Positions 53,028 to 64,000 of a stretch of 64,000 bases of DNA are shown piece by piece. A program made the position numbers and the translations under genes. Every line of letters begins with the position of its first letter. The stretch's first letter is position 1. The stretch covers positions 120 through 64,119 of the forward strand of contig DASQGG010000167.1 of assembly GCA_035632695.1 (NCBI GenBank). The letters run 5' to 3'. Under the pieces are notes generated by a model. It ran no database searches and was not told the origin of the DNA. It worked only from the letters and a program-made list of their open reading frames with translations. This stretch comes from Thermoplasmata archaeon. GTDB lineage: Archaea > Thermoplasmatota > Thermoplasmata > RBG-16-68-12.

Positions 53028-54050
53028 ATGCGCGCGCCCGTGCAGTTCGTGATCATCGCGGGAGGATTGGGCACGCGCCTCCGGCCCTTGACGCTCCGCC
53101 GCCCCAAGGCGCTCCTCCCTCTCCTGAACCGTCCCCAGATCCTCCATGTCCTGGACCGTCTCCCCATGGGTTGCGACCGTGTCGTCGTCGCAGTGAACTA
53201 CCTGTACGAGCAGGTCCGCGACTACTTCGAGGTCCTCGACTCCGACGTCGAGGTCGTCGTGGTCAACGAGCCCCAACCGCTCGGGACCGGCGGTGCGATC
53301 AAGAACGTCGAGGACCACGTCTCGGGCACCTTCGCGGTCGCGAACGGCGACGTGATCGACCGGATCGACTTCGAAGGGTTCCTGAAGTTCCACCGCCGCC
53401 ACCGCGGGATCGGGTCCCTCGGCGTCGGCTCCGTCGAAGATCCCACCGCGTACGGGGTCGTCGCCCTGGACGGCGAGCGCATCACGCGCTTCGTCGAGAA
53501 GCCCCAGGAGACGGAGGCTCCGAGCAACTTGGCGAACGCGGGCCGCTATCTCCTGGAGCCCGAGGTGTTCGATGCGATTGAGGCGGGGCGGGTCGTCTCC
53601 ATGGAGCGCGAGGTGTTCCCCAAGCTGATCCCTCGGGGCCTGTACGCCTTCCGCGAGGAGGGCTACTGGTCCGATGCGGGGACGCTCCCCGCGTACCTGG
53701 AGGCCCAGCGCTTCCTCCTGGAGGACGGAGGCAGCGGCCTCGCCAAGGGCGCCGAGGTCTCCCGCGCCGACCTCCTGTCGCACGTCCTCGTGGCACCGGG
53801 CTGCTTCGTCGAAGGCCACCTGGGGCCCAACGCGGTCCTGGGGAAGGGGTGCAAGGTCGGCCGCTCCGTGGTCCGGAACGCGGCGCTGTTTGACGGCGTG
53901 AGCGTGGACGACAAGGTGGAGATCGACACCTCCATCGTCGGGGAAGGCGCGGCGATTGGCGAGGGCGCGCTGGTGCGCAACTCCATCGTGGGGGACGGAG
54001 TCCAGGTGCTGCCCCATGCGCGGCTCCTCGGGGCGCGGGTGGACGGATGA
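53028..54050 (+). CDS. sugar-1-phosphate nucleotidyltransferase (mannose-1-P guanylyltransferase / glucose-1-P thymidylyltransferase-like) with C-terminal left-handed beta-helix
   Basis: N-terminal motif IIAGGLGTRLRPLT (G-x-G-T-R-x-x-P-x-T), then GTGGAI, then C-terminal hexapeptide repeats (..VGEGAAIGEGALVRNSIVGDGVQV..). Confidence 0.8.
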   Translation: MRAPVQFVIIAGGLGTRLRPLTLRRPKALLPLLNRPQILHVLDRLPMGCDRVVVAVNYLYEQVRDYFEVLDSDVEVVVVNEPQPLGTGGAIKNVEDHVSGTFAVANGDVIDRIDFEGFLKFHRRHRGIGSLGVGSVEDPTAYGVVALDGERITRFVEKPQETEAPSNLANAGRYLLEPEVFDAIEAGRVVSMEREVFPKLIPRGLYAFREEGYWSDAGTLPAYLEAQRFLLEDGGSGLAKGAEVSRADLLSHVLVAPGCFVEGHLGPNAVLGKGCKVGRSVVRNAALFDGVSVDDKVEIDTSIVGEGAAIGEGALVRNSIVGDGVQVLPHARLLGARVDG

Positions 54051-55402
54051 CGCGGCTCTTCGGGACGAACGGGATTCGGGGCGTCGTGGGCCAGGACATG
54101 ACCGCCGACCTCGCGGTCCGGGTCGGGCGTGCCATCGGTTCCCAGTTCGGAGCCGGCTCCGTGGTCCTCGCCCGCGACCCGCGCCTATCGGGACCCATGC
54201 TCGCCCGAGCGGTCGCGGCGGGCCTCATGTCCGCGGGCCTCGAGGTGATCGACCTCGGGATGGTCCCGACGCCTTGCGCCCAGTACTACATCCACAAGCA
54301 CGGCCACCTGAAGGGCGGCGTGGTGATCACCGCCTCCCACAACCCCCGGGAGTTCAACGGGATCAAGGCGATCGACGCCCGCGGGATGGAGATGGCTCGG
54401 GAGGAAGAGGAGGCCATCGAGACCATCTACTTCGAGGAATCCTACCGCGCCGCGGACTGGTCCGCGGTGGGCGACCTCCGGTCCGACGGGAGCGCGATCG
54501 ACCTGTACCTTCGCGACATCCTCTCCCGGGTGGATGTCGACGCGATCCGGAAGCGGAAGCTGACCGTGGTCGCGGATCCCGCGAGCGGCGCCGGCTGCGT
54601 CACGACGCCGTACCTGCTGCGAATGCTCGGCTGCCGCGTGCTCACCCTGAACGGGCAACCCGACGGTGCATTCCCCGGGCGCCTCCCCGAACCCACGCTG
54701 GAGCACCTCGGCGACCTCATGCGGGCCGTGCCCGACTCCAAGGCGGCCCTGGGCGTCGCCCACGACGGCGACGCGGATCGCGCCATCTTCGTGGACGAGA
54801 CGGGAGCCTTCCTCTACGGCGACCGGAGTCTCGCCCTCCTCGCGAAGTCGGAGCTCGCGGATCACGGCGGTCTCGTGGTGACTCCCGTGAGCACGTCGAG
54901 CGTCCTCGACGACGTGGTTCGCGAGGCCGGCGGCAAGGTCCTACGCACGAAGGTGGGCTCCCCGATCGTCGCGCGGACCATGCTCGAGCAGGGCGCCGCG
55001 TTCGGCGGCGAGGAGAACGGGGGCATCATCTTCCCCGAGCACCAGTTCTGCCGCGATGGCGGGATGACCCTCGCCAAGATGCTCGAGGTCGTGGCCCGGG
55101 AGGGCAAGCCGCTCTCGGTCCTGGTCGCTCAGCTCCCGCAGTACAGCCTGTCCAAGGCGGCCGTGGACGTCCCCATCGACCGACGCGAAGCCACCTTGGA
55201 GCGCCTGCTCGGGTTGGTCCGGGACCGGCGCGTCGAGACGATCGACGGCGTCAAGATCCACGAGGAGGACGGCTGGGTCCTCGTCCGCCCCTCGGGGACC
55301 GAGCCCCTGTTCCGCGTCTACGCGGAGGCGCGGACCCCGGAGCGGGCGAAGGCGCTCGCCCAGGAAGGATCGGACCTCGTGCGGAAGGCTCTCAGGTCAT
55401 GA
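54047..55402 (+). CDS. phosphohexomutase (phosphoglucosamine mutase / phosphomannomutase, GlmM/ManB family)
   Basis: Active-site serine loop TASHNPREFNGIK, metal-binding loop DGDADR, and sugar-binding GEENGG. It overlaps the upstream NTP-transferase by 4 nt. Confidence 0.85.
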   Translation: MTRLFGTNGIRGVVGQDMTADLAVRVGRAIGSQFGAGSVVLARDPRLSGPMLARAVAAGLMSAGLEVIDLGMVPTPCAQYYIHKHGHLKGGVVITASHNPREFNGIKAIDARGMEMAREEEEAIETIYFEESYRAADWSAVGDLRSDGSAIDLYLRDILSRVDVDAIRKRKLTVVADPASGAGCVTTPYLLRMLGCRVLTLNGQPDGAFPGRLPEPTLEHLGDLMRAVPDSKAALGVAHDGDADRAIFVDETGAFLYGDRSLALLAKSELADHGGLVVTPVSTSSVLDDVVREAGGKVLRTKVGSPIVARTMLEQGAAFGGEENGGIIFPEHQFCRDGGMTLAKMLEVVAREGKPLSVLVAQLPQYSLSKAAVDVPIDRREATLERLLGLVRDRRVETIDGVKIHEEDGWVLVRPSGTEPLFRVYAEARTPERAKALAQEGSDLVRKALRS

Positions 55403-56180: not shown

Positions 56181-56301
56181 TCCGGCATGGAAAGGGGGGT
56201 CCCCATAAAGGTTTTCCTTCGCGAATCTCGCCGTCGAAATCCGGCGGCGTCGTTCGAGGCGTCGAAACGTACAAGTACGCGACAATACGTTGTGGATACG
56301 C

Positions 56302-56309
56302 CATAAATA
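56302..56309 (+). promoter_or_regulatory. TATA box (CATAAATA) about 25 nt upstream of ATG 56332, with GGCGGAGG (SD-like) 9 nt upstream of the ATG
   Basis: An AT-rich element in GC-rich DNA. Its placement supports translation from 56332, which includes the RHH extension. Confidence 0.45.
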
Positions 56310-56331
56310 CGTTTTGGCGGAGGTATGACGT

Positions 56332-57048
56332 ATGACAGAAGTGCGCGTGGCTCTGTCCGAGGAGATCAACCGGTACCTGGATTCCCTGGTCCGCACGGGT
56401 CCGTTCGCGAGCAAGGCGGAACTGGTCCGGGCCGCCCTCGTGTCCTACGCAAGCGAGGCGGGTCCCATGGCCCAGGGCTTCGACCTGGAGACGCGGTTCG
56501 CCCCAAACGGGCGCGTGTACCAGTTGGAGTACGCTCGGGAGTGTGCCCGCCGCGGCAGCCCGGGCGTCGGTGCGGTGTACGACGGCGGCGTCCTGCTCGC
56601 GGCGACCGCGACCGCCGGGAAGTTGGTGCGTTCGATCCCCAAGATCCGCAGGATCGAGGAGCGCCTCGCGATTCTGGCCTCCGGGTTCGTCGCGGACGCG
56701 TACGTCGCGGCCCAACGGGCGCGACAGGCCAAGCCGCAGAGCACGGAGGATGCCCTCGACCTGCTCGTGAGCCTCTACTGGGAACACTCGGCAGACCGGA
56801 CGAAGCGACCCATGGCCGCCGGGCTCCTGATCGCCAGCGCCCTGGACGGCGATGGACGGCTCTTCTACCTAGACCCCAGCGGCGCGCTCATCGAGTACGA
56901 GGCCGCGGCCGTGGGTGACGACGCGGACGAGCGGATGGAGGCCCTCGAGAAGCGGTATCGGAAGGGGACGGCGCGGGAGACGGAACGGCTCCTCCTCGAC
57001 GTCCTCGGCAAGCCCCCGAAGGTCGAACTCCTGAAGGTGTCCGCCTGA
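56332..57048 (+). CDS. proteasome alpha-type subunit homologue carrying an in-frame N-terminal ribbon-helix-helix (CopG-like) extension
   Basis: Residues 1-45 (MTEVRVALSEEINRYLDSLVRTGPFASKAELVRAALVSYASEA) have the classic RHH beta-alpha-alpha pattern. Residues about 46-238 match the proteasome alpha signature (FDLETRFAPNGRVYQLEYAREC..GSPGVGAVYDGGVLLAA..RIEERLAILASGFVADAYVAAQRARQ). There is no Thr1, so it is alpha-type and not catalytic. Confidence 0.7.
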   Translation: MTEVRVALSEEINRYLDSLVRTGPFASKAELVRAALVSYASEAGPMAQGFDLETRFAPNGRVYQLEYARECARRGSPGVGAVYDGGVLLAATATAGKLVRSIPKIRRIEERLAILASGFVADAYVAAQRARQAKPQSTEDALDLLVSLYWEHSADRTKRPMAAGLLIASALDGDGRLFYLDPSGALIEYEAAAVGDDADERMEALEKRYRKGTARETERLLLDVLGKPPKVELLKVSA

Positions 57049-58114: not shown

Positions 58115-61100
58115 CTACATCTGAGCCTGGCGGATCCCGAGGTACAGGGTGTCCTTGCCCAGGACCGCCTCGATCACGTACGCGTCTTGGGGCGCCTTCG
58201 ACGCGAAGCGCACCTCGAGGGCGTTCGCCTCCCGGAGGATCATGTCCCGCCAGGGCTTGAGCATGCCGCGGACCTCCGAGCTCCCGACGATGTCGAGCTC
58301 CACGACGCTCTCCTCGGTGAGGTTCAGGTCCTTGCGGGAGTCCTTCACGATCCCCACGATTTCCCGCGCGTAGCCTTCCGCGAGGAGGTCCTTGTTGAGC
58401 CGCGTGTCCAGGTAGATCACGCCGCCGTCGAAGGGCTCCTCGACGACGTGCTCGGGAATGCTCTCGACGAAGGAGACCATGCTCGGGTCGATCCGCACCT
58501 TCTGGCCCTCGATGCCCACGGAGTACTCGCCCTTGTCGAGGCCCGCCTTGATCTTCCAGGCGTCCTGGCTCCGGAGGAGGATCTCGATCTTCTTCGCCCA
58601 CAGCTTGTACGCCGCGGACACGGAGTCCATGTGGACGTCGATGTCGATCTTCATCCCCCGCCAGGTCTCGTTGGGGGGGATGATGTCGAGCTCCTTCGCG
58701 CCGCTTTGCCCAACGATGATCTTGCGGAACGCGCTCACCGCGTCGTAGACCAGGGGATCGCTCGCCTGGATTGCGAGTCGGGACACGGGCCAGTACCGCT
58801 CGATCCCGGCGCGCATCTTCGCCTGGAAGGCCGCCTCGAGGGCGCGGCGCAGCACGTCCACGAACGCCTGGACCTGCTCGTCGGAAAGCTGGAGGGTACC
58901 CGCTTCCTTGGCGGTCAGGACCTCCTTCTGGATCTGCTTCTGGATCTCCTCCGTCGGACCGACCGTCGCGTCGCGGACCTTCTGGAGCATCTGGGCACCC
59001 ACTTCGAAGCCGCCCTCCTCGATCGCAGCGCAGGCGGCTTCCAGGAAGTCGCCCTCCTTCCCGCCGAGCAGCCCGCGGTCGAGGAGGATGGGGATCTTGC
59101 TGACCGGCGTGTCTTCGAGGGGTCCCAGGGAGACGCCCTCCACCTCGGTGGCGAAGAGGAGCTTCCGGACCAGGTCCTGGACGCCGTCCAGGACCCCGAG
59201 GTCCCCGCTCCAGTTCTCGAGGCGGATGCCGTAGGCGTCGTGGATCTCCTTGAGGACCTGGACCGTGTAGAGCGGGAGGACCCGCGGCTCCTTGCCGCGG
59301 ATTCCCAGGATTACGAACATCTGGGGCCCGCGCGCGGCGAAGAGGTTCTGATGGCCCATCTTCGCTCGCTGGACCCCTCGGGCCCCGGAGTCCGCGAAGG
59401 CCTTCGTGATGAGGGCCTTGGCCTGGGCCTCCATGGTCGCGGCCTTGTCCGCCTCCTCGGCGGAGAGGTACACGCGGCTCTCGTGGCAGATCAGGTCCCC
59501 GCCCTCATGGAACAGGATTGCGTCCTCGATCGAGTAGCCGTCCTCCGCCTCCACGCGAACAATCTTGGAGTCCGTGACCTGGTGCTTCGCATCGTCGAGA
59601 GGGCGGGTGTAGTGGATCTCGAAGTCGAGGTCCATGGTGCCCGCTTCCCGCGGGCGGACGCCGAACTCGAGGGAGACTTTCTCGTTGGGGTCCAGCTTCT
59701 CCACGCTGTGGAGCCCATGGACGTCGGCAGGGCCGTTGACCACGGGGATGATGTTCTTCGCGGGCCAGTCCCCCTTGTTCTCGATCCGGAGCTCCATCCG
59801 GTTCCACCGGTTCGCCTGGAGGCCCGCGTTCTTCTCTTCGAGGAAGAGGCGCGGGTAGCGGTCCCGGAGGATCTGCTCGAGGCGCGCCCTCGCGGTCGCC
59901 TCAGCCCGGTCGATCAGGGGCTCGAGCCCCTTGAAGTCCTCGGCCTTGAGCGCCTCCTCGGCCTTTGCGAGCAGGACCTCCACATCGCCCAGGTCCGCGT
60001 GGACCTCCTTGGCCTCCGCGACGGTCGCCTGGAGCTTGGCGAGTTCCTCTTTGGCCCGCGCCAGGACCGTGTGGCGCCGCTGGCGCGCCAGGCTGTCCTT
60101 GGCGCGGCGGAGGTAGTCCTCCATCTGCCGGTAGTTCTTCCGCTGGATGGCCGCCTCGATCTTCGTGAGGTACGACTCCGCCTCGCGGGCGTCGAGGTTC
60201 TGGCTCTTGGCGATCTGGATGTCGTTGATCAGGGAAGCGAGCTCAATCTCCACGCGCTTCGCCGCGATTTCCCCCTTCGCGCGCTCCAGGGACTCGTGGA
60301 GCCCCGCGTGGATCTCGCGGACGCGCTCGTACTTCCCCTCGTGGAACGCTTCTTCGGCTTCCCGGAGGAGCAGCTCCGCCTGGCTCACGTCGACCCCGAG
60401 GGACCGCATCTCGCCGACCGTGTCGCGGGCCGCGGCCATGAGGTCTCCCATGCGGCTCTGCAGCTGCTCCTGGGCCGCGTCCGCCTGCGCCTTCGCCTGT
60501 TCGATGAACTGGAGAGCGAGCCGCACGTCCGTCTCGAGGGTCGACTGGGCCTTCGCGAGGAGCTCGTTCGCCGCCACGGTCTGCTCGACGCCGAGGGCGT
60601 CGATGAGCTTCGCGGTCAGGGTAATCGGGCTGTCCGCGAGCGCCCCCATGTCCGCGTTGGGGTCGGTCGCCACGTAGAGGAGCTTCTTGATGACGTCGTC
60701 GATCCCGTCGAGCTGGTGCAGGAGCCCCGTCCACTTGTCGAGGACGGTCCCATATTTCGTCTCGACCTCCTGGAGGATCTGCGCCATGTAGAGCGGGAGG
60801 AGCCGCGGTTCCTCGCCCACGACGACCGTGGCCAGGTACGTGTGGTCCGAGCGCTCGATGAGGACCTTCTCGTCCCCGAAGCCGAGTCGGTCGAGGCCCT
60901 TCCGGGCGCGCTTGAAGGAATCCTTGACGAAGTCCCGGACGACGGTCAGCATGCCCGAGAAGATGTCCTCGTCGATCTCCTCGCGGAACTTGCGGGAGTG
61001 GTGGCTGATCAGCCGGCCGTCCGAGTGGATCAGGAACACATCCTCCACGAGGTACGTGCCCTCGGGCTCCACCTTGACGCTTTGCCGGTCCTTGAGCTCG

Positions 61101-64000
61101 TAGCGGTTCTCGTCGAACATCCGCTGGTACGCGACGTCGACCGTGATGGGCAGATCTCCCGAGGTCCCCGGCTTCAGCCCAACCTCGACGAGCTTCCGCT
61201 CCCCGACGCCGAGCTCGGCGATCGGCGTGGAGCCCTTGACCTCGACGTCGCCCTCGAACCCGAACTCCACGTTCCGCGCGGGGAGCTTGCCCCGGTTCTC
61301 GACCTCGAACACGTAGCGGTTCCAGTTGTTCGCCTGGAGGCCCGTGGTCGGGAGGTGGAGGACCAGGTTCGGGTAGCGGTTCTTGATGAAGTTCGCGATC
61401 TGCATCCCGATGGAGACCTCGGCCTGTTTGATTAGGATGTCCGCCATCGCGAGGTCGTTCTTGCGGACCGCCTCCTCGGCCTGGGCCAGGGACGATTCCG
61501 ACTCGCCGATCTCCGCGCCGAGGCGCTTCGCGTTCGCGATCATGGCGGAGACCGCGTGCATCCGGGACTGGTAGCGGTTGATGAAATGATCACTGCGCGA
61601 CTTCTCGAGGGCCTCCTTCGCTGAGGCGACGCCGTTCTGGAAGCCGGGGACGTCCCCTGCCTCGATGGCGTGGCGAGCGTCGTCGAGCTTCCCGCGGGCC
61701 TCGGCCACGGGGATCCCGAGCCGCTCGCTCTGGACGAGCAGGTCCTCGAGGGTCTGGACCTCCTCGAGGGACCGGCGCTGGAGGGCTTTCTGCTTCGCCT
61801 CGAGCACCTTCTCCTGGAGGTCTCCCTTGATCTTGTAGACGGCCTCGAGGTCGCCGGCGACCGCCGCCTCCGCGGCGTGCTGCCGCGACTCCTGAAGTTC
61901 CTCGGAGAGGAGCCCGAGTTCGAGCCCTTCGTCGATCAGGGGCGAAAGGGATCCGACGAGGCCGTCCAGGTGGGCCTTCGAGGCGATGTCGATCGCCTCG
62001 GAGATCTCCTTGCGGTACGTCTCCATCTCCTCCAGGTTCCCTTCGGAGGCGCGCGCGTCCGCCTTGTCCCAGATTTCTTGGGGGATGCGCATGTCCGCCC
62101 CGAGCTTGGCATGGGCGTCGATGCTCGCCTTGAGCTCGGCGAGCTCGTCCCGCAGGGAGCGTGTGGCACGGTCGCGGCGTGCATCCGTCAGGATGTCCTC
62201 GATGACCTTCTTGTACTCGATCGCCTCGACGTACCGTCCGTCCTCGATCGCCTCGTGGGCGTTCACGAGGACCATGGCCGCGCGCCCCGGGTCGAGACCC
62301 GCGGTCTTCGTCTCTTCGAGGTCGCGCTCCGCCGTGCCGACGAGGTCGCGCGCCGCGGCCTCGAGCCCGATCGCGAGCCCCTGGGCCATCTCCTGGGTCT
62401 CGGCGAGTTCGGCGTGGACCTCGGGGAAGCGCCCTTCTTCGAGGGACTGCTCCGCCCGGGCCATGGCGGCGTCGGCGTTCACGATGGAGATGTCCGCCCG
62501 GGCCAGGTCCGCGAGGACTTTCCGGAGGGCTTGCAGCTCCTTCCGGGCGGCATCCTGGGCCTTGCGGAGTTCGAGCGCCTTGGCGTCCTCGATGAGCTTG
62601 AGCGCTTCCGTCATCCGCGTTTCGGCGGCGCGGGCGAACTCGACCGCGTCCGCGTATTCCTCGTGGTCGAAGTGGCTCTGCGCGCGGGCGAGCTGGTCCG
62701 CCGCGTCGGTCACGTCGACCCCGTTCTCCATCCCCTCCTGAATCTTCCTCTCGGCGCGCTGGATGAGCGCGCGGGCCGCCGCGACGAGCTCGTCCATGAG
62801 CTCCTTGGCCGTGTCGTCAAGGCCGCTCAGGATCGCATCGACGTCATCGAACGCACGTTCGTCGAGGGCTTTCTCCGCTTTGTGGAGGTCCTCCTCGGCG
62901 CCCGTGATGTCGATGTCGGCCTTCCGGAGATCCTCGATGAGCTTCTTGACCGCGATGAACTTCGTGGCGGCGGACTTCGCCTTGTCCATGGCCACGCGCT
63001 GTTGCTCCAAGAGCCGATCGCGGCGCTTGCCCTCGATCACCCGATCGAGGTCCTCCGCGGCTCGGATGGCGAGGCCCGCCCGGCCCTCCTTGAGGTGGGC
63101 CTCCGCTTCCCCGAGGGACGCCTCCATCTCCGGGGTGAGGTAGCTCTCCTCGCGGGCCGTCGCGATCTTCTCGCGCAGGTGATCAAGTGCCGTGGCCGCC
63201 TGCTGCTGCAGGGCGACCTTGGCGCCGTCCACGAGGCCCTCCGCCGCCGCGACGTACCGCTCCGCCCGATCCAGGTCCTCGTCCTTGATGGCCTGGTCCG
63301 CGCTCGCGAGGAGGGCCAGCGCCTTCGCGAGATCGAGTTTCTCCTCGACGAGGTGCCGGACTTCCTGGCCCACCGCCTGCATCCGTGCCTGGAGTCCCTG
63401 CACGCGGTCCGCCCGGGCCTGGGCTTCCTGCTCGCGGCTCTCGGCCTTGGCTTGGAGGGCCGATTGGGTGATCCGCTGGACTTCGTCGATGCAGGACTTG
63501 CTGATGTAGATCGTGTCGCCGTAGCGGCCCTCCGCGTATGCGGATTCGGCCTCCTTGAGCATCATGAGCACGGGCGCGTCCACGGAGAGACCCCCGGCCT
63601 GCGCGTGGTCAATCTCGCCCCGAGCGCGGCCGAGGACTTCGGCGGCCTCCCCCCGGAGGGTCTCCCGCAACGTCTGGAAGTCGTGTTCCACGGCGTCGAG
63701 CAGCCCGTCCGCGTTCGGGAACCGGCGCTCTTGGACCGCGATCGCCGCATCAGCGAGCTTGCCTTCCATGGCGATCGTGTCCTGGCCCGCCTGGCGCAGC
63801 TTGACAATTTCGTCGCGCGCCCGCAGGACCCGGTCGCCGAGGTTCCTCTCCGCCTCGGCGTCCGTCGTGTGGAGGTGCTCGTCGATGAGGGCTTGCAGGT
63901 CCACCGTCTTCCCGAGGGAGATCGCGTCGTCCACCTGGCGGAGGAGCTGGCGGCCGACTTCGGGGTCGAGCCCGCGCGGGGCGTTGATGAGAATGACCTT
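58115..64000 (-). CDS. giant coiled-coil / helical-repeat protein (>1,960 aa, N-terminus beyond the window edge) with duplicated beta-sandwich plus Roadblock-like modules and an aaRS-C-terminal-like tail
   Basis: One uninterrupted frame runs from the window edge (in-frame ..KVILINAPRGLDPEVGRQLLRQ before the first GTG/Met at 63934) to the stop at 58115. The composition is E/A/R/K/L/D-rich. At least 13 helical units of about 70-80 aa share the motif A-E-x-[AS]-x-x-E-G-[RK]-[YF] (for example AESAYAEGRYGD, AEAHLKEGRAG, AEEAFHEGKYER). Two paralogous modules of about 250 aa (aa about 845-1095 and 1352-1597; DNA 60652-61402 and 59146-59881) begin [ND]RYP[NR]L..LQAN.WNR..L.IEN.G..PA.N. The C-terminal segment ..LDTRLNKDLLAEGYAREIVGIVKDSRKDLNLTEESVVEL.. 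resembles class I aaRS (IleRS) C-terminal motifs. Confidence 0.6.
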   Translation of the reverse strand, partial: KVILINAPRGLDPEVGRQLLRQVDDAISLGKTVDLQALIDEHLHTTDAEAERNLGDRVLRARDEIVKLRQAGQDTIAMEGKLADAAIAVQERRFPNADGLLDAVEHDFQTLRETLRGEAAEVLGRARGEIDHAQAGGLSVDAPVLMMLKEAESAYAEGRYGDTIYISKSCIDEVQRITQSALQAKAESREQEAQARADRVQGLQARMQAVGQEVRHLVEEKLDLAKALALLASADQAIKDEDLDRAERYVAAAEGLVDGAKVALQQQAATALDHLREKIATAREESYLTPEMEASLGEAEAHLKEGRAGLAIRAAEDLDRVIEGKRRDRLLEQQRVAMDKAKSAATKFIAVKKLIEDLRKADIDITGAEEDLHKAEKALDERAFDDVDAILSGLDDTAKELMDELVAAARALIQRAERKIQEGMENGVDVTDAADQLARAQSHFDHEEYADAVEFARAAETRMTEALKLIEDAKALELRKAQDAARKELQALRKVLADLARADISIVNADAAMARAEQSLEEGRFPEVHAELAETQEMAQGLAIGLEAAARDLVGTAERDLEETKTAGLDPGRAAMVLVNAHEAIEDGRYVEAIEYKKVIEDILTDARRDRATRSLRDELAELKASIDAHAKLGADMRIPQEIWDKADARASEGNLEEMETYRKEISEAIDIASKAHLDGLVGSLSPLIDEGLELGLLSEELQESRQHAAEAAVAGDLEAVYKIKGDLQEKVLEAKQKALQRRSLEEVQTLEDLLVQSERLGIPVAEARGKLDDARHAIEAGDVPGFQNGVASAKEALEKSRSDHFINRYQSRMHAVSAMIANAKRLGAEIGESESSLAQAEEAVRKNDLAMADILIKQAEVSIGMQIANFIKNRYPNLVLHLPTTGLQANNWNRYVFEVENRGKLPARNVEFGFEGDVEVKGSTPIAELGVGERKLVEVGLKPGTSGDLPITVDVAYQRMFDENRYELKDRQSVKVEPEGTYLVEDVFLIHSDGRLISHHSRKFREEIDEDIFSGMLTVVRDFVKDSFKRARKGLDRLGFGDEKVLIERSDHTYLATVVVGEEPRLLPLYMAQILQEVETKYGTVLDKWTGLLHQLDGIDDVIKKLLYVATDPNADMGALADSPITLTAKLIDALGVEQTVAANELLAKAQSTLETDVRLALQFIEQAKAQADAAQEQLQSRMGDLMAAARDTVGEMRSLGVDVSQAELLLREAEEAFHEGKYERVREIHAGLHESLERAKGEIAAKRVEIELASLINDIQIAKSQNLDAREAESYLTKIEAAIQRKNYRQMEDYLRRAKDSLARQRRHTVLARAKEELAKLQATVAEAKEVHADLGDVEVLLAKAEEALKAEDFKGLEPLIDRAEATARARLEQILRDRYPRLFLEEKNAGLQANRWNRMELRIENKGDWPAKNIIPVVNGPADVHGLHSVEKLDPNEKVSLEFGVRPREAGTMDLDFEIHYTRPLDDAKHQVTDSKIVRVEAEDGYSIEDAILFHEGGDLICHESRVYLSAEEADKAATMEAQAKALITKAFADSGARGVQRAKMGHQNLFAARGPQMFVILGIRGKEPRVLPLYTVQVLKEIHDAYGIRLENWSGDLGVLDGVQDLVRKLLFATEVEGVSLGPLEDTPVSKIPILLDRGLLGGKEGDFLEAACAAIEEGGFEVGAQMLQKVRDATVGPTEEIQKQIQKEVLTAKEAGTLQLSDEQVQAFVDVLRRALEAAFQAKMRAGIERYWPVSRLAIQASDPLVYDAVSAFRKIIVGQSGAKELDIIPPNETWRGMKIDIDVHMDSVSAAYKLWAKKIEILLRSQDAWKIKAGLDKGEYSVGIEGQKVRIDPSMVSFVESIPEHVVEEPFDGGVIYLDTRLNKDLLAEGYAREIVGIVKDSRKDLNLTEESVVELDIVGSSEVRGMLKPWRDMILREANALEVRFASKAPQDAYVIEAVLGKDTLYLGIRQAQM

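Follow-up and report, generated by a model that had tools for sequence, protein, structure and literature searches.

What would a proteasome alpha subunit do with a DNA-binding domain? The question is raised by a gene in a 64,000-nucleotide (nt) stretch of a Thermoplasmata archaeon genome (assembly GCA_035632695.1, contig DASQGG010000167.1, positions 120 to 64,119; the whole stretch is called the window below). Its 238-residue product begins like a ribbon-helix-helix (RHH) protein and continues in frame like an alpha subunit of the 20S proteasome, and is referred to here as RHH-alpha. An earlier sequence-only reading had left two functions side by side, one a change in how the proteasome is gated, the other a regulatory protein with a proteasome-like fold. 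The regulator was favoured by the present analysis, on account of an operator-like repeat array upstream of the gene and of the degenerate H1-H2 helices of the alpha domain, and the gate was retained at lower weight.

Conservation of the fusion

The product was identical to GenBank HYM40587.1 ("hypothetical protein VEY12_10705") of a Thermoplasmata archaeon metagenome-assembled genome (MAG), and its ATG at 56332 was the earliest possible start codon downstream of the upstream in-frame stop. A word-indexed search returned more than 110 homologues that spanned 100% of the query at 35–100% identity and were typically 238–244 residues long; in an exhaustive search of 50%-identity representatives, 31 clusters aligned from residue 1. 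In total, at least 146 proteins, which form at least 31 clusters at 50% identity, carried the fusion, with 130 distinct N-termini that all read M-x-E-[IVL]-R. The N-terminal RHH module was the best-conserved segment of the family alignments, and 29–30 residues separated its helix B from the alpha signature in 59 of the 60 members measured. Because full-length homologues are widespread, the RHH part is the most conserved, and the length of the junction is fixed, the in-frame fusion was confirmed as a real, selected product. The near-invariant start and RHH helices, together with the fixed spacing, thus bear out the fused form predicted from the sequence alone. A chance open reading frame (ORF) in GC-rich DNA was considered and rejected, since the homologues cover the full query and the N-terminal module is the best conserved.

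An annotation artefact would require either a true start at an internal methionine, giving an ordinary alpha subunit, or a separate RHH gene joined to the alpha gene by sequencing error. The internal methionine, which is residue 46 and not 47 as first numbered, does sit just ahead of the alpha gate motif. However, only 25 of 78 members had Met at this position, and the others had F, I, or L; it is poorly conserved, and therefore an alpha subunit started there is not a credible product. Judged by conservation, internal initiation, which had been named as the outcome that would speak against the fusion, is very unlikely. The in-frame fusion also came from at least 146 independent sequences of many assemblies and sequencing projects, and purifying selection on the RHH part was stronger than on the rest of the protein. 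The artefact is effectively refuted, with only a very small residual probability.

The N-terminal ribbon-helix-helix domain

Alignment of the family showed that the N-terminus was organized into a beta-strand segment (residues 2–9), helix A (10–22), a turn of the form G23-x-F25-x-[SN]-K28, and helix B (28–43). M1, E3, R5, G23, and R33 were invariant family-wide, E3 and R5 lying in the strand, and D13, Y15, L16, V20, F25, K28, A29, E30, L31, A34, and A35 were conserved at 90% or more; in helix B, K28, A29, E30, L31, R33, A34, and A35 were nearly invariant.

Searched alone, the window protein gave Pfam matches below the cut-offs [RHH_1: E 0.044, 14.2 bits (cut-off 20.5); ParD: E 0.043, 14.7 bits (cut-off 21)] and matched the NCBIfam ParD model with an E-value of 5.6e-4. 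When 36 non-redundant N-termini of the family were searched, 18 matched RHH_1 (best E 1.3e-5) and 11 matched ParD_antitoxin; a precomputed RHH_1 assignment was found for one family protein only (P0079) among the matches listed. The profile of the family N-termini was compared with the PDB, a check that the sequence-only reading had suggested, and the ParD antitoxins 7b22 and 3kxe were in the top three, with the strand and both helices aligned.

The AlphaFold2 (AF2) monomer model of residues 1–46 had a predicted local distance difference test (pLDDT) score of 91 and showed an extended segment (1–9) and two helices (10–22 and 28–43). The strand segment was extended and unpaired in the monomer. 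Foldseek comparison of the RHH model with the PDB gave RHH proteins (ParD/PrpA, NikR, Reg576, and MazE) for all of the top 16 matches [template modelling (TM) score 0.60–0.83, root-mean-square deviation 1.1–3.0 Å]; the E-values were weak (about 1), the domain being small. On this profile and model evidence, residues 1–44 are predicted to be a ParD/CopG-type RHH domain, an assignment that was accepted and is solid at the family level. The proposed CopG/RHH module therefore stands for the family and for the AF2 fold; for the single sequence the evidence is weak.

ParD/PrpA, CopG, and Arc (PF03693, PF01402) were the best sequence and structure matches of the RHH-alpha N-terminus, which had their strand-helix-helix topology and their pattern at the start of helix B, G-x-x-x-[ST/N]-K/R-[AS]-E-[LIV]-[LIV]-R. 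Short-repeat operators about one helical turn apart are a further common trait, putative for RHH-alpha. In contrast to these proteins, RHH-alpha is not a stand-alone small protein, has no toxin partner, and carries the invariant E3 and R5 on the strand. With ParD/PrpA antitoxins as its nearest RHH relatives in sequence and fold, the protein could be taken for the antitoxin of a toxin-antitoxin pair that became incidentally fused to another domain. However, no ParE or other toxin gene was adjacent in the window or in 19 related loci, the neighbours were DUF92 and FEN1 genes in the window and varied elsewhere, and the fusion ends in a folded alpha-type domain rather than in a toxin-binding tail. 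An antitoxin is contradicted by the gene neighbourhoods, and its probability is close to nil.

Repeat array upstream of the gene

The 60 nt ahead of the ATG contained an array of direct RTACR repeats with A-rich spacers, at spacings of 10, 11, and 11 nt (−25, −36, −47, and −57 from the ATG), and this array recurred in register upstream of 16 of 18 family genes. The 100 nt upstream of the gene at 18 non-redundant loci held 34 forward RTACR sites, against 4.1 expected from the remainder of the same loci (Poisson 4e-20), and successive spacings were exactly 11 nt in 13 of 18 cases. The array-bearing loci spanned 35–69% G+C, and their proteins were 35–67% identical. The repeat unit had a consensus of roughly AAAnATACGTnAAA, with A-rich spacers in the unit even in GC-rich loci. 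A locus of a soda-lake MAG that was fetched later (L094) showed TTTAAAT followed by ATACA-N6-ATACA at −46 and −35.

The phased pair RTACR-N6-RTACR was confined to the array in the 64-kb window (2 vs. 0.15 expected), and the triple was unique. In the family loci (213 kb), 12 of 14 phased pairs lay directly upstream of an RHH-alpha gene; at canonical psmA loci (72 loci, 724 kb), none of the 13 phased pairs lay directly upstream of psmA.

The start of the fused form had been argued from a TATA box about 25 nt ahead of the ATG. The element, ATAAATA, is present; however, it lies in the spacer between two repeats, and a Shine-Dalgarno-like GGAGG precedes the ATG, so that the transcription start is not settled by the TATA box and this part of the argument is not secure. 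In AT-rich relatives, a clearer TATA element (TTTAAAT or CTTAAATA) was found upstream of the array. By eye, GGAGG or a near variant occurred at the same distance in about 12 of 18 family loci. A 16-mer, GGAGGTATGACGTATG, covers both the start codon and the Shine-Dalgarno-like element and was identical in a Hodarchaeota locus (L009, about 2872–2887), despite a G+C content of 41% there and about 67–68% in the window. An inverted copy of the repeat core, ACGTAT, overlaps the start codon, and the arrays of two other loci (L007 and L017) had an inverted ACGTAT as the last unit. The region of the 16-mer may serve as a further operator site, or it may act at the RNA level.

Operators of RHH repressors usually consist of short repeats one helical turn apart that overlap the promoter, and dimers of Arc and CopG line up along one DNA face, each major groove in turn being occupied, with 11-bp phasing. 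By this analogy, and from its sequence pattern, the array is probably an RHH operator for autoregulation. Autogenous regulation would be the most economical explanation because the array is gene-specific and conserved, and because E3 and R5 on the putative reading strand and K28 at the start of helix B, the phosphate-anchoring position, are invariant or nearly so. A candidate target DNA for an RHH dimer is ATACGTTGTGGATACG. The ATACG(T) motif is not known from described RHH operators.

The N-terminal module could also be a protein-protein device, such as a dimerising plug or a partner dock, with the repeats serving another factor or the architecture of the promoter. The sub-threshold RHH scores of the window sequence alone, the presence of an invariant Glu3 in the strand presumed to read DNA, and the chance that the A-rich spacers and part of the motif are promoter elements speak for it. 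Against it, fold and profile pointed consistently to DNA-binding RHH families; the repeats were gene-specific, with none elsewhere in the 64 kb and none at canonical psmA; their 11-bp phasing matches RHH operators such as those of Arc and CopG; and the reading-strand residues and the motif were both conserved family-wide. We give this alternative a low probability.

The alpha-type domain

The Pfam Proteasome domain (PF00227) was matched over residues 74–220 with 73.5 bits (cut-off 22.4). The alpha N-terminal signature PF10584 scored 20.9 bits against a cut-off of 27.7 over residues 54–70, with the motif PNGRVYQLEYARE plainly present, and most family members had a precomputed PF10584 match. The closest solved structures were 20S alpha subunits of archaea (3h4p_A, E 5e-27), to which the protein aligned from residues 49–54 onward. 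The AF2 model of the full protein, built from 78 family sequences, had a mean pLDDT of 88 and showed helix H0 (58–72) followed by an alpha/beta sandwich. The top 50 PDB matches of this model in Foldseek were all 20S alpha subunits (E about 1e-16, TM about 0.7).

The 78 family members were aligned with 139 canonical alpha subunits, in which 101 columns were at least 85% conserved. The family retained 42 of these 101 columns, and the retention was asymmetric. In the gate and H0 region (residues 8–34 of Thermoplasma acidophilum), 13 of 22 canonical-conserved positions were kept. F/Y50, D51, P58, G60, Y67, and K104, residues of the gate and the HbYX pocket, were each present in 78 of 78 members; their T. 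acidophilum equivalents are Y8-D9 (F50-D51), P17 (P58), G19 (G60), Y26 (Y67), and K66 (K104). In the H1-H2 region (T. acidophilum 84–125), 2 of 21 positions were kept and nine residues were deleted, H1 (120–133) and H2 (138–154) together being nine residues shorter than in canonical subunits. The annulus loop YGGV was replaced by D155-R156-T157-K158 (family pattern D-[RK]-T-[KRQ]), and 76 of 78 members had Arg or Lys as the equivalent of G127. The chain stops after a single C-terminal strand, and the last strand and helix H5 are absent; the C-terminus, which had been called alpha-type, is so only in part.

The gate-stabilising and HbYX-receiving roles of these residues are reportedly known from the work of Rabl, Yu, Forster and colleagues, and H1 and H2, through which subunits of 20S particles touch the neighbouring ring, are said to face the beta ring in alpha subunits, as Lowe and colleagues reportedly found in 1995. 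In beta subunits, H3 and H4 make the beta-beta contact, according to a published paper. Judged by the alignment, the top face of the alpha domain, with the gate and the HbYX pockets, is preserved, and the underside is not.

Compared with PsmA (TIGR03633/NF003075; T. acidophilum 1PMA, M. jannaschii 3H4P), RHH-alpha thus had the same fold, the H0 signature PDGRxxQxEYAxE, the same gate cluster (Y/F8, D9, P17, Y26) and HbYX pocket (G19, K66), and likewise lacked the conserved catalytic threonine. Unlike PsmA, it had 46 extra N-terminal residues that form the RHH domain in place of the gating tail of 7–12 residues, as well as the shortened H1-H2 hairpin without the conserved residues, the D-[RK]-T-[KRQ] loop in place of YGG, and no last strand or H5.

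Relationship to canonical PsmA

The window protein was 35–43% identical to canonical alpha subunits and scored about one third of the equivalog cut-off [TIGR03633: 96.9 bits (cut-off 287.35); NF003075: 104.5 bits (cut-off 219)]. Nine other family members gave 75.9–190.1 bits over both models, all below the cut-offs, with a Hodarchaeota long form the highest. A canonical Thermoplasmatota alpha subunit used as a control (L039) gave 296.5 (TIGR03633) and 309.3 bits (NF003075). Canonical psmA heads a psmA-SBDS-Rrp4-Rrp41-Rrp42 cluster, and SBDS adjoined it in 55 of 72 loci; in the family, SBDS adjoined RHH-alpha in 0 of 22 loci, and the gene stood outside this superoperon. In a neighbor-joining tree of the alpha domains without the RHH part, the family was separated from all 27 canonical alpha subunits, eight of them from Thermoplasmatota, in 85 of 100 bootstraps. 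Because the PsmA scores are below the cut-offs, SBDS and exosome genes are not adjacent, and the alpha domains form a separate clade, the RHH-alpha protein looks like a paralogue of PsmA and not the housekeeping PsmA.

Canonical alpha subunits were also sought in the assemblies that carry RHH-alpha. No canonical alpha among the best 80 of 577 confirmed matches shared a whole-genome shotgun prefix with the 12 RHH-alpha assemblies, and no NCBI protein accession series was shared between RHH-alpha and canonical alpha clusters. The assemblies of the widely sampled RHH-alpha P0062 and the canonical alpha P0431 differed, as did those of a canonical alpha from a "Nitrospiraceae" MAG (P0382) and an RHH-alpha contig labelled "Nitrospirae". 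Three pairs of canonical alpha subunits had near-consecutive accessions (P0294/P0355, HEX2021384/HEX2022349; P0308/P0356, MHB8584217/MHB8584932; P0310/P0354, MHB8603813/MHB8603987), and the paired proteins were 58–82% identical to the query alpha. These accessions indicate a pair of canonical alpha paralogues in some MAGs of Thermoplasmatota, so that alpha paralogy is common in the phylum.

Working subunit or regulator

RHH-alpha could be a working 20S alpha subunit, alternative or sole, that sits on beta rings and in which the RHH domain replaces the gating tails. The RHH domain would then alter gating, join particles to one another, or anchor the proteasome on DNA, and autoregulation by free subunits could coexist with this role. 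The gate cluster (F/Y50, D51, P58, Y67) and the HbYX pocket (G60, K104, L119, V120), which are invariant or nearly so, argue for a working subunit. A homologue of the proteasome assembly chaperone 2 (PAC2/PbaA-like family) is encoded directly 3' of the RHH-alpha gene in two loci (L007, 8736–9509; L017, 6740–7507); the two products were 67% identical and each terminated in VMYG, an HbYX-type tail, which fits a retained function of the pocket. A Prok-JAB gene lay 4 kb upstream in L007.

Long forms of 262–301 residues, of which a Candidatus Hodarchaeota MAG protein (MFX0097547.1) is one, had a full-length H1-H2 hairpin and retained the C-terminal strand and helix. They scored up to 190 bits on a PsmA model (e.g., Hodarchaeota P0133) and are better candidates for a working alpha subunit, and a canonical psmA in the same genome was not demonstrated by the comparisons above. 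For the short form, however, 19 of 21 canonical-conserved positions of H1-H2 were lost with the nine-residue shortening, a basic loop replaced the YGG annulus, and H5 was missing. All tested family members were below the curated PsmA cut-offs, the gene was never at the psmA-SBDS-exosome position, the family formed a separate clade, it was recovered in at least 12 GTDB species representatives only (a lower bound), and alpha paralogy is common in the phylum. A working alpha subunit is therefore regarded as unlikely, though it deserves serious weight.

The explanation to which we lean, with modest conviction, is that RHH-alpha is a PsmA paralogue that acts as an oligomeric, autoregulating DNA-binding protein, with the HbYX top face kept and probably no capping of a beta ring. 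The N-terminal RHH domains would pair into dimers, and the two-stranded sheet of each dimer, with E3 and R5, would enter the major groove of a single ATACG(T) unit. Given the 11-bp distance between units, three to five dimers could fill successive grooves on the same face of the DNA. The array would overlap the core promoter, and its occupancy would repress transcription of the gene itself. The alpha-like domain would oligomerise, probably as an alpha-type ring, and so gather several RHH domains, and its top face is probably still able to bind HbYX partners, for example PAN/Cdc48 or the PAC2/PbaA-like protein whose gene shares the operon in some relatives. With its beta-facing helices short and degenerate, the short Thermoplasmatota form probably no longer caps a canonical beta ring. 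DNA binding to the repeats, repression, ring formation, and loss of beta docking are what we infer.

Several points weigh against this explanation. The RTACR array was absent from two loci (L008 and the Hodarchaeota L009), both with long-form genes, and another regulator could use the repeats, DNA binding by RHH-alpha being inferred only. A base-contacting role would be unusual for Glu3, which does not vary and lies on the strand presumed to read the DNA, and the seven-fold symmetry of a ring is at odds with the two-fold symmetry of an RHH dimer. A perfectly conserved HbYX-pocket lysine and gate cluster would be expected of a working proteasome subunit, and H1/H2 are assigned to the beta-facing side on the reported findings of Lowe and colleagues. 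Long-branch attraction could affect the neighbor-joining tree, and the indirect accession and assembly comparisons did not demonstrate a canonical psmA in the same genome.

A bolder version of the regulator, to which we assign a rather low probability, would place an alpha-type ring off the beta ring and on DNA. In it, pairs of RHH domains would grip the phased ATACG sites, and the intact HbYX pockets would bring AAA+ unfoldases (PAN, Cdc48/VAT) or PAC2-type factors to chromatin; the long forms may instead tether the 20S particle.

Distribution of the family

Thermoplasmatota MAGs supplied most of the RHH-alpha proteins; the named sources were Thermoplasmata, Thermoplasmatota, and "Euryarchaeota" MAGs, as well as one Hodarchaeota MAG. 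At least 12 GTDB species representatives, labelled Thermoplasmata, Methanomassiliicoccales, DHVE2, and Thermoplasmatota, carried the gene; one genome per species was scanned and the best 80 of 577 confirmed matches were used, so that this count is a lower bound. No cultured organism was found among the family matches listed. Two archaeal-type loci carried bacterial labels: an RHH-alpha gene on a 4-kb contig binned as a "Nitrospirae bacterium" MAG (L013, VBOD01000062.1), and, under the name "Nitrospiraceae bacterium" (P0382, JAACEN01), a psmA-SBDS-exosome cluster of the canonical archaeal kind. Both are probably archaeal DNA mis-binned into bacterial MAGs.

Gene neighbourhood and features of the window

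The features of the RHH-alpha gene are listed in Table 1. The G+C content was about 67–68% throughout the window. A gene for a DUF92 membrane protein lay upstream on the opposite strand, and the two genes diverged from a common intergenic region of 151 nt (56181–56331), which separates the DUF92 start from the RHH-alpha ATG. The repeat array was solely on the RHH-alpha side of this region. A second AT-rich patch, CCATAAAGGTTTTCC (about 56203–56217), was 22–35 nt from the DUF92 start and may be the DUF92 promoter. A FEN1/XPG flap endonuclease gene lay downstream of the RHH-alpha gene and was convergent to it. No beta subunit gene and no second alpha-like proteasome gene was found anywhere in the window, which extends the earlier observation that no beta subunit is adjacent.

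Table 1. Features of the RHH-alpha gene and its upstream region (positions in the window)
Feature	Position	Strand	Basis or remark
ORF, RHH-proteasome-alpha-like fusion, 238 aa and stop	56332..57048	+	complete
RHH domain, residues 1–44 (predicted)	56332..56463	+	profile matches, AF2 model, Foldseek, family conservation
Linker, residues 45–49 (PMAQG), fixed length, non-conserved Met46	56464..56478	+	AF2 pLDDT 51–61; alignment
Alpha gate and H0, residues 50–72, signature PNGRVYQLEYARE	56479..56547	+	13/22 canonical-conserved positions retained
Alpha-type beta-sandwich core, residues 73–238	56548..57045	+	Pfam, AF2/Foldseek, alignment
Four direct RTACR repeats (GTACG 56275; ATACG 56285, 56296, 56307); weaker GTACA 56269	56275..56311	+	putative RHH operator
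ATAAATA, the "TATA box" of the sequence-only reading	56303..56309	+	inside A-rich spacer between two repeats
GGAGG, Shine-Dalgarno-like, 8 nt before ATG	56319..56323	+	also in about 12 of 18 family loci, by eye
ACGTAT, inverted repeat-core copy overlapping start codon	56328..56333	-	inside tandem GTATGAC GTATGAC (56323–56336)

No gene neighbourhood conserved family-wide was found. Synteny was confined to subclades, in which the gene was accompanied by an MFS transporter and a radical-SAM gene, by adenylosuccinate synthase, or, in two loci, by PAC2.

Further upstream in the window, an NTP_transferase/hexapeptide (GlmU-like) gene overlapped a phosphoglucosamine/phosphomannomutase gene by 4 nt (53028–55402, + strand); this sugar-nucleotide pair is ordinary and unrelated to the RHH-alpha finding. 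An ORF of 1939 residues (58115–63934, − strand) had abundant Ala/Glu helical repeats, with a CARDB-like stretch at residues 855–941 (E 1e-6) and a C-terminal DUF5915 at residues 1780–1915 (E 2.6e-11). Large repeat or TPR proteins were also encoded near the RHH-alpha gene in L006, L014, L017, and L007, and low-complexity similarity may explain these matches.

Comparison with known systems and significance

PutA and NikR have an N-terminal RHH domain fused to a domain that does not bind DNA, and they control their own or cognate genes. RHH-alpha resembles them in combining an N-terminal RHH domain of about 45 residues with a larger functional or oligomerising domain, and in having a candidate operator at the cognate promoter, by which a structural or enzymatic protein would double as its own regulator. 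It differs in that the partner is the proteasome alpha fold, that no ligand or switch was recognised, and that its DNA binding is a prediction.

The alpha subunits of the proteasome are seen as having roles in structure and gating only, and an alpha fold joined to an RHH domain is not known to have been reported. No description of an RHH/CopG or other DNA-binding domain fused to a proteasome subunit was found in the full-text literature outside subscription journals; the expectation that no such fusion had been described was thus upheld. The words "ribbon," "RHH," "DNA-binding," and "fusion" are absent from the text of Fuchs et al. (2021; PMC8665760), the main survey on homologues of the proteasome. 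Like the Haloferax alpha2, the eukaryotic alpha4s, Anbu, BPH, connectase, and the 22 groups of that survey, RHH-alpha is a lineage-restricted, divergent proteasome homologue that coexists, or probably coexists, with a canonical core particle; unlike RHH-alpha, none of them is described with an RHH or other DNA-binding domain. The RHH-alpha family is conserved and apparently undescribed. Both of its domains are familiar, and what appears to be new is the way they are combined, together with the putative operator and the decay of the alpha domain on one side.

The current labels of about 150 database entries ("hypothetical protein," "peptidase," or "proteasome alpha subunit") hide the RHH-alpha architecture. 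The family adds a putative RHH operator motif, ATACG(T) with 11-bp phasing, and its occurrence in a Hodarchaeota MAG gives it some bearing on how the proteasome evolved before eukaryotes. If the bolder version were true, a DNA-anchored docking platform would have been derived from the lid surface of the proteasome, and in the long forms, including that of Hodarchaeota, the RHH domain would tether a complete 20S particle to DNA, a prokaryotic precedent for the coupling of proteasome and chromatin. If RHH-alpha is a regulator as proposed, either a transcription factor has taken up the alpha fold as a scaffold for oligomerisation or docking, or some archaeal proteasomes have a direct link to DNA, and the family would offer a simple, testable case of autogenous control in archaeal proteostasis.

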